This document shows, in pieces, positions 58,478 through 64,000 of a DNA stretch of 64,000 nt. The position numbers were made by a program, and so were the translations under genes. The stretch is taken from assembly GCA_037189585.1 (NCBI GenBank), contig JBBCJA010000013.1:259067-323066 (forward strand), written 5' to 3'. Under the pieces are notes generated by a model that was given only the letters and a program-made list of their open reading frames with translations, was not told the origin of the DNA and did not search any database. Position 1 is the stretch's first letter. Every line of letters starts with the position of its first letter. The stretch comes from Selenomonadaceae bacterium. GTDB taxonomy: Bacteria > Vulcanimicrobiota > Xenobia > Xenobiales > JADMJV01.

Positions 58478-59461
58478 ATGTCTGACATCGTCACCGAAGC
58501 ACCGCTCAACCGTCACGTCTCTTGGCAAGGTCTCGAGCACGACGTGACCCCTACCGGAGAGTTCTTCTGCCGTAACCATAACGACTTCCCCGAGCCTCCT
58601 GCCATCTTGGACTGGGCGGGCCACCCCCTGACCCCCGCGGAGCTGGCCGCCATGTCTCAGGTCGAATATCTGGTCACGCTAGAGTGCGCCGGTAACGGAA
58701 GAACCGAATTCAAGCCGGTGCCTAAAGGAACTCCTTGGGGAATTCGAGGTCTTTCCACGGGTCGTTTCCGCGGTGTCGCGGTGGAGACGCTGCTCAGAGA
58801 ATTTCCTCCTTCGTCCGAGGCCAAGCACGTCATCTTTCGCGGGGCCGATCGAGGCGAGGATGGTCTCTACGAGCGCAGCTTGACCTTCGATGAGATCGGT
58901 CGACATAGGGCCCTGGTCGCCTTAGAGATGAACGGAAAGGCTCTACCCTTGCAGCACGGGGCCCCCTTCCGTCTGATCGTTCCGCACTACTACGCGATGA
59001 CGTCCGTCAAGTGGCTGTGTCAGGCTGAATATTCCCCCACGGCGAGCGTCGGCTACTATCAGATCGAGGACTATCTGGTCGACTATCAAGATGGAACCCC
59101 GATTCGTCCGGCCACCTTGATGCGACCCAAGTCGATTCTGGTCTCACCTGCCGAGGGGGAGACCGTTCGGGGGATAGTGAGCATTCACGGTAAGGTCTGG
59201 TCGGGCGAATCGCACGTCAGCGGTGTTGAGCTCGAGCTTCGGGGAGCGGGAGCGGACCGGCTTCTGGTGGCACGGCTGGGAGACGACTTGGGACCTTTCG
59301 CCTGGCGGTCCTTTCATGCCGAAGTTCAACTCGCTCCAGGCTCATACTCGGTAACCTCTTTCTGCCTGACCGATCAGGAGCGCCAACCCAAAAAAGCGCG
59401 CTGGAACGCCCAGGGATACGAGAACAATTCCGCCCATCGAGTGGCCTTCCAGGTCGGTTAA
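58478..59461 (+). CDS. Sulfite-oxidase-family molybdopterin oxidoreductase (Moco-binding plus dimerisation domain)
   Basis: FFCRNHNDFP...LTLECAGNGR Moco-binding Cys context and a C-terminal Ig-like dimerisation domain. An alternative TTG start lies at 58439. Confidence 0.75.
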   Translation: MSDIVTEAPLNRHVSWQGLEHDVTPTGEFFCRNHNDFPEPPAILDWAGHPLTPAELAAMSQVEYLVTLECAGNGRTEFKPVPKGTPWGIRGLSTGRFRGVAVETLLREFPPSSEAKHVIFRGADRGEDGLYERSLTFDEIGRHRALVALEMNGKALPLQHGAPFRLIVPHYYAMTSVKWLCQAEYSPTASVGYYQIEDYLVDYQDGTPIRPATLMRPKSILVSPAEGETVRGIVSIHGKVWSGESHVSGVELELRGAGADRLLVARLGDDLGPFAWRSFHAEVQLAPGSYSVTSFCLTDQERQPKKARWNAQGYENNSAHRVAFQVG

Positions 59462-59591: not shown

Positions 59592-60080
59592 CTAGGCTTG
59601 CCGATGTAGCTTCCGCTTCAGCCATAGCACCGCTTGCTGACGCTGCTCCGAGAGCCTCGTGTCGCCTTGAGCCCGACTACTGCAATCGTCATTGTCGCCT
59701 GACACTTTGCTCTCCTTGCTCTTTCTCTTTGCCCTAAAGCACTCGCTTCGCATCGCCCTGGGATGAGTGCGGCGATGTTCTTTCAGGAGCTCTAGCGGCC
59801 TAACCCGCGTGTAGCTCTCGGTGGTGGTCGAGCTCTCGTGTCCCAAGAGGGCTTGGATGTAAGCCACGTTCGCGCCGGACTCCAAGAGATGGGTCGCGAA
59901 GGAATGACGCTTATGCCGAGCTCGGCATAACCGACACACGCATGCCTCTCAGCTGGACCGAAGCCGCTACCGTCCCGGTCGGTTCACGTCCAGAAAATCC
60001 TTGGGCACAGGCAGCTCGGCTCCACTCAGGTTTACTGCACGGTCACGAAGGAAGAACTTGCTAGATCTGCCAGTGACCTG
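59592..60080 (-). pseudogene. Frameshifted tyrosine-recombinase (phage-type integrase) C-terminal remnant
   Basis: [36 protein letters not shown] covers catalytic box II, but upstream integrase-like segments ([10 protein letters not shown]...) lie in other frames with stops. Confidence 0.55.
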
Positions 60081-60637
60081 GAATAGGGCCATTTTTCGAA
60101 CCGTTCTGGATCGTTACCTAGTGACGTGGTGGCCATCACTGGCGTTAGTGCGTAACGCCCAGTTCCGGGATCGTCTGTGGCCATGTCTCGGCGACTCCTC
60201 GCAGATCCCCCGTAGATCTGGCGATCCTGCGGGGGCCTAACGGCCAGGATCCAAAGACCCTACTTGGGGGGACATGGTGCCGTTTATCGGTATCCGCTCG
60301 TCGCCGCTTCGCTTGGGCTAACGCCCAAGCTCATGGGCCGGGGCTCAAGGGACCGCGAGAGATCCGCGTTCACGATCTCGCATCCAACGCGGGGCCTAAG
60401 GCCGGACTCCAACGATCAGCGATGAGCGGCGACAATTGCGGGCGGGCTCATCGCCCCGGCCAACGCCAGCCATCGCGCTTTGTTCCAAAGCAGAGAAGGT
60501 TACACTCAAAGCTCTCGCTCGAGACCGGCAGCAACCGAGGGTCAGAGCAAACGACAGACTTTGGGGGGCCGGGTGACTCGCGCGGGAGAGGTTCTTGGGC
60601 TCAAGGGGATTGATGGGCAGCTTTCCCCAGCGAATCA

Positions 60638-60833
60638 CCCGGCGCGGAGCCTAAAGGCGGAACTTTGAGCAACGAACAGGCTCAGAGCTTTGGCCGGGCC
60701 CGCGCCGGAAGACGGTGCCCCGCCTTTGCCAGTCCCCTGTCGGGGACTGAAAGCCGGGGCGTAAGGCTCTTCTTCTGTTCTTGGTTCGCAGAAAAGAAAA
60801 AAGCCCCGACCGACCTGGGGAGATCGATCAGGG
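60638..60833. repeat. Copy 1 of an approximately 195-bp structured direct repeat
   Basis: About 90% identical to 61432..61626. It contains the hairpin ccagtcccc-tgtc-ggggactg and a GC-stem/A-rich 3' end. Confidence 0.6.
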
Positions 60834-60923
60834 GAGTGACATGGTCTCGGCAGTTGAATACTCAGATAGACGAATAGCGCCGAGTCACTTCCTTCACTTG
60901 TCTTGAACACGTAATATACGAAT

Positions 60924-61283
60924 ATGCAGGTCCCAAGAGAACAAAGAAAATGGATATTCACGGGACTTTTATTGGTTGTAGTTTGCTTTTGTAGTGTAGT
61001 CGCGTCTGGCAAGACTTGCTGGATTCCGGAGATTGGGGATTCTGAAAATGAAGTTCGCAAACACCTCAGAAATCCGATTCTTATAAGAACTGGTCAAAGC
61101 TTACGAATGCCAGATACAGTTTGGATGTCACTAGATGATTCCGCAAGAGCAATAAGGTTCGATGAACTACCAGCGAGCAGAGGTCATCGACTTCTATACA
61201 CGTGTGGGTTCTTGAGTTCCGAGTTTGTACTAGTGTACATCGAAAACGATAAAGTCTCTCAGGTTTTCAGGGGGGGTACTTGA
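60924..61283 (+). CDS. Low-GC small ORF (119 aa) with signal peptide, a likely horizontally acquired cargo gene
   Basis: Segment 60840-61430 is about 42% GC versus about 60% for the window. The ORF begins MQVPREQRKWIFTGLLLVVVCFCSVVASG. No similarity recognised. Confidence 0.3.
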   Translation: MQVPREQRKWIFTGLLLVVVCFCSVVASGKTCWIPEIGDSENEVRKHLRNPILIRTGQSLRMPDTVWMSLDDSARAIRFDELPASRGHRLLYTCGFLSSEFVLVYIENDKVSQVFRGGT

Positions 61284-61431
61284 GTTGGAGTCACCTTCCA
61301 TGCCTCCGGGGAGGAACATCAAGGTTATGAAAACTTGGGTTGATAGTGGAGTCCAATCGTGTCTTATCACATGGGGCCGGTGGGTTATCAATAGCATCAA
61401 TGCAGGCGCTTGAACAGCTTTTCGTCGGCTG

Positions 61432-61626
61432 AGTCCGGGCGAAGCCTCAAGGCGGGACTTTGAGCAACGAACAGGCCCAGAGCTTTGGCCGGGCCCACGT
61501 CGGAAGACGGTGCCCGCCTTTGCCAGTCCCCTGTCGGGGACTGAAAACCGGGGCGTAAGGCTCTTCTTCTGTTCTTGGTTCGCAGAAAAGAAAAAGCCCT
61601 GGTCGACCCGGGGGAAGCGATCAGGG
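61432..61626. repeat. Copy 2 of the approximately 195-bp structured direct repeat
   Basis: See copy 1. It ends 8 bp before the IS66-type terminal sequence GTAAGCGG. Confidence 0.6.
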
Positions 61627-61673
61627 CTTGCAGTAAGCGGTTCCTGAGTGGTGTTCTTTCGGGGCGTTAGACG

Positions 61674-62024
61674 ATGCCTTATTCTGGATCGATGTCACAA
61701 AGAGTACCGAGAGAGGACCGCCTGGCAATGGCCCGACGGTTCGAACAAACCAGCATCAGTAAGGACAACTTCTGCAAGGCCGAGAACATTTCGATGTCGA
61801 CCCTCGACTACTGGCGACAGCAACTTCGCCTCGATGATACCTTCGGTAACGGCTACGCCTTTCAGGGGGCTGTGGAGGGCCAATTCGTGGAGCTCATCGC
61901 TGATAAGCCCGGTCGTGTCACGACACGGCCGCCAGCACCAGGCCAGAGACCCGATTTGGAGGTCCAGCTTCCCCTTGGTGTCAAGCTTCGCTTCTTCGGA
62001 GTCGGGAGCGACGGTCACAGGTGA
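61674..62024 (+). CDS. IS66 TnpA-like (Orf1) protein
   Basis: Small HTH protein overlapping the next ORF by 4 nt, in the typical IS66 arrangement. Confidence 0.6.
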   Translation: MPYSGSMSQRVPREDRLAMARRFEQTSISKDNFCKAENISMSTLDYWRQQLRLDDTFGNGYAFQGAVEGQFVELIADKPGRVTTRPPAPGQRPDLEVQLPLGVKLRFFGVGSDGHR

Positions 62025-62446
62025 GTCAAGAACTCCTAGCCCCGGCGCGAGTCTTCGTGTTTGGGCAGCCAGTCGACATGCGCAAGAGCTTCGATGGATT
62101 GTACTGCATAGTCCGATACAAGCTCGAGGAAGAGCCCACTAGCGGTGACTTATTCCTGTTTCTGAACCGCCGACGAAATTACGTCAAGGGTTTGCTATGG
62201 GACCGCACAGGCTTCGTGATTATCGCAAAGCGTCTCGAGAACGGTCAGTTCAAGCTGCGAAACAAGGCCTCCAAAATCGTCATCTCGCGAGAATGTCTGA
62301 GAAAATTTCTAGACGGGATTTCTGTGGGAGGAGTTGAGATCGTGGGATCAAACCCTTTAAGCAGTGGACATGCAGACGCAGCTACAGAGGATGTCGAAGG
62401 CCGAACTGGTCTCCTTCGTCCTCCAGCAGCAAGCGGCCCAAGCTGA
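62021..62446 (+). CDS. IS66 Orf2 (TnpB-like) protein
   Basis: VFVFGQPVDMRKSFDGLYCIV...NRRRNYVKGLLWDRTGFVIIAKRLENGQFK is the IS66 Orf2 signature. Confidence 0.7.
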   Translation: MSQELLAPARVFVFGQPVDMRKSFDGLYCIVRYKLEEEPTSGDLFLFLNRRRNYVKGLLWDRTGFVIIAKRLENGQFKLRNKASKIVISRECLRKFLDGISVGGVEIVGSNPLSSGHADAATEDVEGRTGLLRPPAASGPS

Positions 62447-63725
62447 GGTTGAGCGGAAACAGTCCGACACCATCGCAAGTCTTGAGCGCCACATCAAGTG
62501 GCTATCCAACATCGCCCTGGGTTCAAGATCCGAGCGGCGAGTTCTTGACCATCTCGATGCCGAAGGCCAGCTTCTCCTTAGTGGGATGATGCTCGAGCTG
62601 CCGAAGGAGGTTCCCCCGGCTGACACTACCGTTGTTGACCTAGACAAGAAGGGCCGCAAGAAGAAGACCAAGGTCGACGACAAGACGACAGGTGGCATTC
62701 GTTTCAAAGACAACGTGCCCGTCATCGAGGTCAAGGTTGAGAATCCGCTGCTCGCCGGCGCTGACCCCGCAAAGCTCACCGTTATCGAGACCCGCCACAG
62801 CGACCGAATCGTGGCTCTACCGCCCTTCGCTGTCTTGAGAATGGTCCTTGAGACAACCAAGAACAAAGTTACGGGCGAGATCAGCCGGCCCAAGGTTCCC
62901 TCCGGCATCTGGGATCAGTGCTGCGCTGACGTGAGCTTCCTGGCCAAGCTCGTGGTGGACAAGTATCAGTTTCACCAGCCGCTCTACCGTCAGCATCAAG
63001 AGCTTCAGCAGAAAGGTGTTGAGATCCACCGCGGGACAATTTCGCGTTACATCCATCGTGCTGCTGAGCTGCTTGACCCAATCTACGGAAGTCTCTTGAG
63101 CTCGATTCTGAAGTCCAAGGTCATCTCGATGGACGAGACGCCGGTCAAGGCTGGGCATCAGGACGGGAAGACCGACAAGACGAAGAAGGCTTTCTACTGG
63201 CCCATCTACGGTGACCAAGATGAGATCTATTTCCTGTTCTCGCCGACGAGGTCGGGCAAGGTCGTCAAGGATGTGCTGGGCGCCTTTCAGGGCACGCTGC
63301 TTTCCGACGGCTACGATGCCTACGAGACCTTCGCCAACAAGGTGGAAGGGGTTACCTGGGCAGCCTGCTGGGCTCACGTGCGCCGCAAATTCATCGAAGC
63401 CGAGAATCACGAGCCCGACAAGGTGAAGAAGCTGCTTGTCTGGATGCAGACGCTATACAAGGTCGAGAAAAACGCCGGTGATGATCGCAAGCTTCGAGAA
63501 AGGCTTCGGTCGGAGGTCTCGACCGAAGTCGTCGATGAGATATTCACTTATCTAAACCAAGTCTACGCCGAATCGCGTCTACCTCAGACCAGTCCGTTCA
63601 TCATCGCTATAAATTACGCTTTGGAACGCACAGACGGCCTGCGCGTCTTTCTGAGCGACCCCGCCGTTCCTATCGACAACAATCACGTTTATGCCGCGCG
63701 CGGCATAATCCGGGAGTCGGCATAA
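62364..63725 (+). CDS. IS66-family transposase TnpC (C-terminally truncated)
   Basis: Leucine-zipper N-terminus, zinc-finger and DDE region (HQPLYRQHQELQQKGVEIHRGTISRYI...AACWAHVRRKF). The C-terminus is lost after DNN. Confidence 0.75.
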   Translation: MDMQTQLQRMSKAELVSFVLQQQAAQAEVERKQSDTIASLERHIKWLSNIALGSRSERRVLDHLDAEGQLLLSGMMLELPKEVPPADTTVVDLDKKGRKKKTKVDDKTTGGIRFKDNVPVIEVKVENPLLAGADPAKLTVIETRHSDRIVALPPFAVLRMVLETTKNKVTGEISRPKVPSGIWDQCCADVSFLAKLVVDKYQFHQPLYRQHQELQQKGVEIHRGTISRYIHRAAELLDPIYGSLLSSILKSKVISMDETPVKAGHQDGKTDKTKKAFYWPIYGDQDEIYFLFSPTRSGKVVKDVLGAFQGTLLSDGYDAYETFANKVEGVTWAACWAHVRRKFIEAENHEPDKVKKLLVWMQTLYKVEKNAGDDRKLRERLRSEVSTEVVDEIFTYLNQVYAESRLPQTSPFIIAINYALERTDGLRVFLSDPAVPIDNNHVYAARGIIRESA

Positions 63726-63727
63726 CG

Positions 63728-64000
63728 TGGGCGAGGGTGGGCATTGGTACCACAGTCAAAAGTGCTCCCGTCCGCAACTCGGTCAAGGTGTTCGGCGCCA
63801 TTAACGTCACTCACGCAGCGCGCCCTCGCTGGCACTACCGCTTCGACAAAATCTTTAACACTCAGACGTACCTTCGGTTCTTGAAGCAACTCGTCCGTTA
63901 CTATCCCGGGCAAAAGGTTTTTCTGATCGCCGACAACGTTAGCTACCACCACGCGAAGGTCGTGCGAGAATGGGCTGCGGACAACTCCGATGCAATCGAG
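63728..64000 (+). mobile_element. Internal fragment of an IS630/Tc1-mariner-family transposase gene (no start; runs off the window)
   Basis: The in-frame translation reads ...VKVFGAINVTHAARPRWHYRFDKIFNTQTYLRFLKQLVRYYPGQKVFLIADNVSYHHAKVVREW..., the IS630 DDE core. It begins mid-domain directly after the truncated IS66. Confidence 0.55.

Follow-up and report, generated by a model that had tools for sequence, protein, structure and literature searches.

Recombinase-in-trio (RIT) elements are reportedly the subject of work by Van Houdt (2009 and 2012) and Ricker (2013). In published accounts they comprise a trio of recombinase genes and, at the ends, terminal inverted repeats of 34 bp and imperfect palindromes of 47-51 bp (PMC3414803, PMC10214605, PMC5737581). 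These elements are widespread, yet their movement is listed as not tested and has never been reproduced in the laboratory (PMC10214605). Here we describe relics of RIT ends at two gene breakpoints near the 3' end of a 64,000-nt stretch of DNA from a Selenomonadaceae bacterium (contig JBBCJA010000013.1, positions 259,067 to 323,066), hereafter called the window. All coordinates are positions within this window, in which the region from 58.8 to 64 kb was re-read for open reading frames (ORFs) and repeats.

Three other described systems are relevant to this region. Complete insertion sequences (IS) of the IS66 family have a whole transposase, two GTAAGCG ends and an 8-bp target duplication. Complete IS630 elements encode a helix-turn-helix (HTH) and a DDE_3 domain between terminal repeats and are flanked by a TA duplication. 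CIME-type elements are cis-mobilisable elements associated with tandem accretion at an attachment (att) site, for instance ICESt1/CIME of Streptococcus thermophilus.

A preliminary description of this DNA, made from the sequence alone, had presented the region as a mobile-element scar. This view is confirmed: the IS66 copy is truncated, the IS630 piece starts in the middle of a domain and the integrase is a dead remnant. As a whole, the region is an ordinary scar of this kind, and the useful addition is the recognition of two of its breakpoints as RIT-end relics with no RIT genes nearby. The DNA from 59.6 kb to the window end is a graveyard of nested mobile elements. Our favoured explanation as a whole, which combines RIT-end relics with an att-like origin for a 195-bp repeat, has slightly better than even standing.

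Palindromes at two gene truncations

The palindrome TTATGCCG-N4-CGGCATAA occurs twice in exact form, at 59911-59930 (P1) and at 63689-63708 (P2), precisely at both gene truncations of the region. With up to three mismatches allowed, three matches were found, including the two exact ones, and none of 100 shuffled sequences reached three (mean 0.22). The palindromes are not due to chance. They form the organising feature of the region, which the preliminary description had overlooked.

P1 (TTATGCCGAGCTCGGCATAA, 20 bp, exact pattern match, no strand assigned) has the centre AGCT and is extended by an imperfect palindrome to 59905-59936, which is also listed as an inverted repeat. It cuts a XerD-like integrase gene at the His codon of the R-H box. 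The flanking 6-mers, TGACGC to its left and CCGACA to its right, fit the TG....-P-....CA pattern of RIT-associated copies, and a 20-mer identical to P1 is present in three IMG/VR loci (L006-L008).

P2 (TTATGCCGCGCGCGGCATAA), with the centre CGCG, is followed by an 8-nt spacer and by a third half-site, TCGGCATAA, at 63717-63725. The resulting 37-bp block (63689-63725, recognised by pattern match, no strand assigned) joins an IS66 tnpC gene, cut after DNN-HV, to a 5'-truncated IS630 gene. It is composed of one left half-site and a complete two-half-site terminal repeat. In its half-site period of 17 nt and in the sequence CGGCATAATCCGGGAGTCGGCATAA it agrees with the ritC-side repeats found in the public elements L012, L014, L031 and others. 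Window positions 63700-63725 (GCGGCATAATCCGGGAGTCGGCATAA) are nearly base for base a repeat of this type, with the spacer CCGGGAG vs CCGGGCA or CCGGACG in the public ritC-side repeats.

Altogether, the window shares with RIT elements the 9-bp half-site (TTATGCCGA / TCGGCATAA), the 17-nt period of the two-site terminal repeat, the 20-bp palindrome built from a left and a right half-site, and flanks of the TG....CA type. Since this half-site and palindrome anatomy occurs here without rit genes, P1 and the P2 block are relics of RIT ends, not elements. Two of the breakpoints in the region are relics of RIT element ends.

RIT elements in public loci

A scan of IMG/VR with the palindrome pattern returned 30 loci. 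(L-numbers designate public loci, except for L001 and L002, which are Logan short-read assemblies from SRR27999909.) Genes resembling ritA-ritB-ritC lay beside the palindrome in 13 of the 30, as detected by tblastn with the L012 trio, and were in tandem wherever all three fell within the fetched locus. All three L012 proteins scored as tyrosine recombinases. Several further loci were contigs ending within such an element. A synthetic linker and a telomere-resolvase site had also been considered as the origin of the palindrome, and both were dropped once it was found beside rit trios.

The palindrome lay beside a RIT terminal repeat, separated by a 6-nt spacer, in 21 of the 30 loci; all of these had a half-site at +6, and all except two had another at +23. 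Complete elements displayed TTATGCCGA-8-TTATGCCGA at one side and its reverse complement at the other. The same 6-mer was found at both outer sides in five of nine complete public units (L007, L012, L014, L027, L035). TG opens the outer 6-mer and CA closes the inner one, and the two are often exact reverse complements. The flank adjoining the palindrome starts at a His codon in the public loci, as do the two integrase fragments beside P1 (Int-X and Int-Y, described below).

A regular end anatomy was observed in L012, L014, L018, L019, L022, L027, L031, L033 and L035. Its order is an outer 6-mer TGNNNN, the palindrome of 20 bp, a spacer of 6 nt that ends in CA, a two-half-site repeat, ritA-B-C and the opposite repeat. 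Spacer and outer 6-mer are exact reverse complements in nine loci, and the outer 6-mer recurs past the opposite repeat in L012, L014, L035 and L027. L018 and L022 have the palindrome on the ritC side, whereas in most of these loci it is on the ritA side. The gene interrupted by most such elements is DUF3489-like, and the break falls within the His codon of W-Q-x-H-T/S-V-R-G. L007 (1252-1382, with a mirror in L008) contains a RIT miniature of about 125 bp that is devoid of recombinase genes; it carries the palindrome, one left and two right half-sites and ACGGTA at both sides, and truncates a small membrane-protein ORF. The loci gathered here thus reveal regular ends for RIT elements: palindrome, 6-nt spacer and 6-bp flank duplication.

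Integrase fragments on both sides of P1

Left of P1, on the minus strand, Int-X (59592-59910) preserves the 3' part of a XerD-like gene for a tyrosine recombinase. It encodes the final 52 or so residues of the protein, with the domain part at about 59754-59909, and matches positions 133-169 of 172 of Pfam Phage_integrase (E = 9e-11) and positions 239-290 of 290 of the NCBIfam XerD profile. Only R-H...Y of the catalytic set R..K..H-x-x-R..H/W..Y is retained, so that the catalytic domain is incomplete. The preliminary description had seen here a frameshifted tyrosine recombinase. However, no integrase-like frame was found on the minus strand upstream of 59930, which indicates a truncation, and the frameshift was dropped. 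The Int-X frame reads 53 codons (59592-59753) beyond the usual XerD-type end (..HPRA), up to a stop at 59592; either the natural stop was lost or the recombinase had an unusual tail.

Right of P1, on the plus strand, Int-Y (59931-60083) appears to be the weakly supported 3' remnant of another tyrosine recombinase. Its frame reads T-H-A-C-L-S-A-G...V-Q-K-I-L-G-H-R-Q-L-G-S-T-Q-V-Y-C-T-V, with a stop at 60083, and retains only H...Y of the catalytic residues. In a six-frame scan it matched positions 150-171 of 172 of Pfam Phage_integrase, under the curated cut-off.

Int-X and Int-Y mirror each other about P1, with the His codon of the R-H box as the starting point of both. The mirroring does not extend to the nucleotide sequence: only a 10-13-nt motif is common to both sides, which is no better than in shuffled sequence. 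Two mirrored integrase 3' halves at a symmetric site would be expected from an inversion between insertions in oppositely oriented genes, and would suggest that RIT copies have recombined with each other. At this place a Mo-oxidoreductase gene (58478-59461) once had as its neighbour an integrative element that carried a XerD-like integrase.

IS66 and IS630 fragments

The IS66-family element (61633-63688, plus strand) is represented by its left end only. The terminus GTAAGCG lies at 61633 (GTAAGCGGTTCC...) and is followed by tnpA (61674-62024), tnpB (62021-62446) and tnpC (62364-63688), which match the profiles NF047593 (TnpA), PF05717 (TnpB) and PF03050/NF033517 (TnpC). The order of the genes, their overlaps and the terminus are those of ISSpu21-like members of the family. 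The preliminary description was right in stating that TnpC is cut right after DNN: the protein ends after ..IDNNHV and covers positions 3-259 of 284 of DDE_Tnp_IS66 in Pfam and 11-333 of 387 in NCBIfam. Compared with ISSpu21, the window copy lacks about 94 tnpC codons and the right end, and no second IS66 terminus was found within the window.

The IS630-family transposase fragment (63726-64000, plus strand) was also correctly described as starting mid-domain. It matches Pfam DDE_3 from position 19 to 107 of 146 and then runs off the window end. Thus it shares the DDE_3 domain with the family and differs by the absence of the N-terminal half, including the HTH and the first catalytic D. Its homology starts at the base after the third half-site. 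Decayed relatives of this fragment were found in other samples (L004, L005), and homology to L004 begins at 63725.

The fragment in L004 (215-330, Logan SRR32661229) is 89% identical to window positions 63725-63999 and has the same start base. The sequence upstream of it, GCGAGCGCATAAT...AGTCGGGGACATTGG, may represent this RIT end in decayed form, in which case the junction between the RIT end and IS630 could be older than the organism of the window.

These observations also bear on another origin of the palindromes, namely that they are the terminal inverted repeats of IS630, with an internally deleted IS630 in IS66 and a solo end in the integrase gene. This would account for the position of P2 directly before the IS630 fragment and for the start of the L004 fragment at the same base. 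However, the public palindromes and half-sites accompany rit trios and never IS630 genes, the sequence right of P1 has no IS630 similarity, and the half-site period and spacer match those of RIT repeats. An IS630 origin is therefore highly improbable.

Weighing the RIT relics

Several observations weigh against the assignment of the breakpoints to RIT ends. About one third of the 30 viral matches lack the RIT hallmark, having neither adjacent half-sites nor rit genes, and a rough estimate of the chance matches expected for a 16-base pattern in such a collection is of the same order as these loci. P1 has no adjacent half-sites, and no further ones were found near Int-X, Int-Y or the 195-bp repeat. 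P2 runs straight into the two-site repeat, whereas the canonical order is palindrome, 6 nt, repeat. Unlike RIT elements, the window holds only 20 bp (P1) and 37 bp (P2 and the third site), its flanks come from different genes and the 6-bp direct repeat is missing. A complete terminal repeat of the ritC-side type does lie at 63700-63725, with no matching opposite repeat. The window also contains none of ritA, ritB and ritC: tblastn with the L012 trio gave only a generic 33-aa match of RitC to Int-X. We can therefore only infer the action of RIT recombinases here. Finally, no reciprocal junction of the P1 or P2 rearrangements was found in the window, the Pfam match of Int-Y is sub-threshold (E = 0.074), and the P1 junction is covered by no independent contig, L001 ending at 59863.

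The odd junctions might also be assembly chimeras. Logan contigs from the same run (SRR27999909), which are 100% identical to the window, start or end at 59863, 61689 and 63753, and none of the independent contigs retrieved covers the P1 junction. The stop at 59863 lies 48 nt before P1, inside the integrase fragment, and may reflect another genomic copy of that integrase sequence. In contrast, the P2 junction, including 45 nt rightwards, is identical in the independently assembled contig L002. Moreover, a 20-bp palindrome is too short to mislead assemblers at k >= 31, the centres of P1 and P2 differ, and the same palindrome lies at gene truncations in unrelated public contigs. Chimeras are thus very unlikely.

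We propose that RIT copies or miniatures inserted into the integrase gene, the IS66 tnpC gene and IS630. Recombination between copies, driven by RIT recombinases in trans or by the short half-site repeats, would then have deleted or inverted the intervening DNA. Such events would leave solo ends and join unrelated flanks, while the rit genes and the missing gene halves would be gone. At P2, the copy in IS66 tnpC may have recombined with the copy in IS630: a deletion running from the palindrome's right half to the inner half-site of the far repeat would produce precisely the 37-bp arrangement. The outer 6-mers of this relic differ (TCACGT vs CGTGGG) and its flanks belong to two unrelated genes. 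Different 6-mers are expected after recombination between two RIT copies, which would thus explain both this inequality and the mirrored integrase fragments at P1. In this respect the relics resemble solo long terminal repeats and IS copies without target duplication, which also consist of ends only, with unrelated flanks and no target duplication. They differ by their tiny size (20-37 bp) and by the enzyme, which would be a tyrosine recombinase set acting in trans.

The 195-bp repeat

The second feature of the region is a repeat, R, on the plus strand at 60639-60833 (R1) and 61435-61626 (R2). The two copies are 91.3% identical over 195 columns, with three single-base indels, in agreement with the direct repeats of 195 bp and about 90% identity reported initially; there are only these two in the 64-kb window. 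The GC content of R is 62.5% vs 58.3% for the window. The predicted folding of either strand is much more stable than that of shuffled sequence (z = -4.6 for the plus strand and -5.7 for the minus strand), so that the internal hairpins noted earlier are also borne out. On the plus strand of R1, a long imperfect hairpin, H1 (about 60639-60708), precedes a strong GC hairpin, H2 (about 60717-60762), which has a U-rich run behind it. The opposite strand has a 13-bp terminator hairpin (60833-60804) and, after it, the T-run TTTTTTCTT. R thus carries convergent terminators. The homology begins fairly sharply at about 60640 and ends 6 nt short of the IS66 terminus.

The sequence between Int-Y and R1 (60084-60638, plus strand) is a non-coding, hairpin-dense stretch of 62% GC. 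It has no Pfam match in six frames and folds with z = -1.9 on the plus and -3.1 on the minus strand. Six plus-strand copies of the motif GGGGC(N)(T/C)AAGG(C/G) are spread over 60234-61561, and two variants mark the 5' ends of R1 and R2; upstream of R1 it is found at 60234, 60342, 60393 and 60598. Elsewhere in the window only four loose matches turn up, or three in addition to an inverted copy at 59665-59674 on the minus strand, in the tail behind Int-X.

Between the two copies lies an insert, X (60834-61434, plus strand), of 601 bp and 45.4% GC, and the composition jumps sharply at both inner repeat borders. The preliminary description had given about 42% GC for 600 bp; the low-GC insert is real, the figure slightly low. 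Direct repeats of 91% identity around DNA of foreign composition (45% vs 58% GC) are what is expected of att sites. We tentatively prefer, at low confidence, to regard R1 and R2 as an att-like duplication caused by the integration of a circle. R would have been a host-type GC-rich spacer, duplicated when a circle carrying the 601-bp segment and a related copy of R integrated. R1 and R2 would then be attL- and attR-like, and the insert would resemble an integrase-less, CIME-like hitch-hiker. A candidate enzyme for this integration is the now broken Int-Y, 555 bp upstream and pointing at R1. IS66 inserted 6 nt beyond R2, presumably after the R-X-R arrangement had formed. Like CIME-type elements, the locus has a small integrase-less foreign segment within direct repeats, adjoining the remains of an integrase-bearing element. 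It differs in that no att core, target gene, empty site or third copy was identified at R, and in that R is 195 bp of spacer DNA rich in terminators instead of the 3' end of a gene for a tRNA or a protein.

The attL/attR proposal of the preliminary description is plausible but stands only in part: the direct orientation, the foreign DNA and the weak Int-Y fragment agree with it, and other results count against it. No tRNA or tmRNA was detected by ARAGORN, no integrase is encoded between R1 and R2, and neither an empty site, a further copy of R nor an R-bearing relative was found in the public collections searched. Furthermore, the identity between R1 and R2 peaks in mid-repeat and drops to its minimum over the final 30 nt, a profile not expected of an att core. 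The distance of only 6 nt between R2 and the IS66 end means that IS66 could somehow be involved.

These last two features would fit an origin of R1-X-R2 with no site-specific recombination at all. A spacer might have undergone local tandem or segmental duplication and received foreign DNA, or paralogous loci might have been joined by rearrangement, with R2 carried by the IS66 flank. The identity indeed falls towards both edges of R, and the neighbourhood is demonstrably rearranged. Such a history would not explain why the composition jumps exactly at both inner repeat borders. The homology also stops short of the IS66 terminus, not at it, and there is no second IS66 copy or other R locus as support. 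We consider this origin unlikely.

The strong folding of both strands would also fit a lineage-specific element. R could be similar to a repetitive extragenic palindromic (REP) sequence or a miniature inverted-repeat transposable element (MITE), or could be a small structured RNA gene, present here twice by chance with the gene merely lying between. The GGGGC(N)(T/C)AAGG(C/G) motif, which recurs upstream of R and inside it, always on the plus strand, is consistent with this, as is the minus-strand hairpin. This hairpin contains eight of the 17 differences between R1 and R2, yet none of its 11 predicted pairs is broken, with one compensatory and four one-sided changes. However, covariation is confined to this terminator hairpin; elsewhere the substitutions weaken the stems without compensation. 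R has neither terminal inverted repeats nor a target duplication.

The database searches were also unfavourable to such an element. Against Rfam 15 (59-64 kb, E up to 5), the only match was CRISPR-DR10, with 18.7 bits vs a threshold of 39 (E = 1.6). The H2 pattern had one chance match in GTDB genomes, in a Clostridia metagenome-assembled genome that has no BLASTN similarity to the window. R was not found in JGI metagenomes (searched with two blocks of R), in IMG/VR or, by blastn, in PLSDB, and six-frame peptides of both copies matched none of 5.8 billion predicted proteins. With two copies only in 64 kb, a REP- or MITE-like element or an RNA gene is quite improbable. The suggestion that the repeats are copies of a small structured RNA is not upheld; nothing points to a new RNA family, and R is unclassified.

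The layout of the locus, with a recombinase remnant on the left and a small foreign ORF, seemingly promoter-less, between structured repeats, also recalls an integron cassette between two attC sites, in which case the integrase remnant would be a dead IntI. Boxes resembling GCCTAAC are present at 60238 and in the 5' part of R. However, R has no GTTRRRY core site on either strand, the candidate R'' is not conserved between the copies (GCCTAAA vs GCCTCAA), the identity extends about 60 nt beyond the putative R', and R is 195 bp long vs 57-141 bp for attC. The integrase fragment scores best as XerD and is too short to display the IntI-specific insert. A cassette of this type is scarcely credible. 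The template repeat/variable repeat pair of a diversity-generating retroelement was rejected: the differences between R1 and R2 include G/A, C/T, T/C and T/G changes as well as indels and are not adenine-specific. No reverse transcriptase domain was found in the scanned ORFs of 58-64 kb.

Significance of the relics and the repeat

The relics and the repeat may be read jointly, although we think this rather doubtful: the RIT palindrome would be a working recombination site, and R with its upstream motif array would be the attachment region of undescribed, very small, integrase-less gene cassettes. If the palindrome is a working site, miniature RIT ends of 20-37 bp may outlive the recombinase genes, and RIT enzymes acting in trans may drive deletions and inversions that fuse unrelated genes. 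There may also be a preference for the His codon of the R-H box in tyrosine recombinase genes, similar to that for the W-Q-x-H codon in DUF3489-like genes.

Solo end relics at gene fusions, together with the regular anatomy of the public loci, offer concrete substrates, and predictions with which the working of the three recombinases can be tested. The 20-bp palindrome is also helpful for annotation, as it allows otherwise puzzling truncations to be recognised. The 195-bp repeat matters only if more copies or an empty site appear.

The gene within the low-GC insert

The insert contains an ORF of 119 aa (60924-61283, plus strand; 43.6% GC), predicted to form an N-terminal hydrophobic helix and a small alpha/beta domain. 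A full HMMER scan of 1.84 billion representatives returned four homologues of similar size, with about 30% identity. They share a conserved C-terminal pattern, and most have a comparable hydrophobic N-terminus. Since these distant homologues are of the same size and preserve the pattern, the ORF singled out by the preliminary description is, to judge from these comparisons, a real gene of a rare family, with no function assigned. Its AlphaFold2 model has a pLDDT of 77, and a Foldseek search of the PDB with this model gave nothing below E = 0.1. A word-index homology search with the ORF gave no matches, and exact look-ups in the Logan/ENA index returned no record for this ORF or for a 141-aa antisense ORF.

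At the loci of the homologues, neither R-like sequence (L036-L038) nor flanking repeats (L036-L039) were found. Among the homologues in L036, L038 and L039, two are paralogues that lie 234 kb apart on one 1-Mb contig and have ordinary chromosomal surroundings. The L036 homologue lies directly after a 506-aa gene and adjoins a 204-aa Phage_integrase gene and a DUF3368/UPF0175 pair. Finally, a faint impression of a Planctomycetota-like genome is given by Ser/Thr kinase and FHA-BTAD genes that the window contains upstream of the region and by similar genes at the homologue locus L037.

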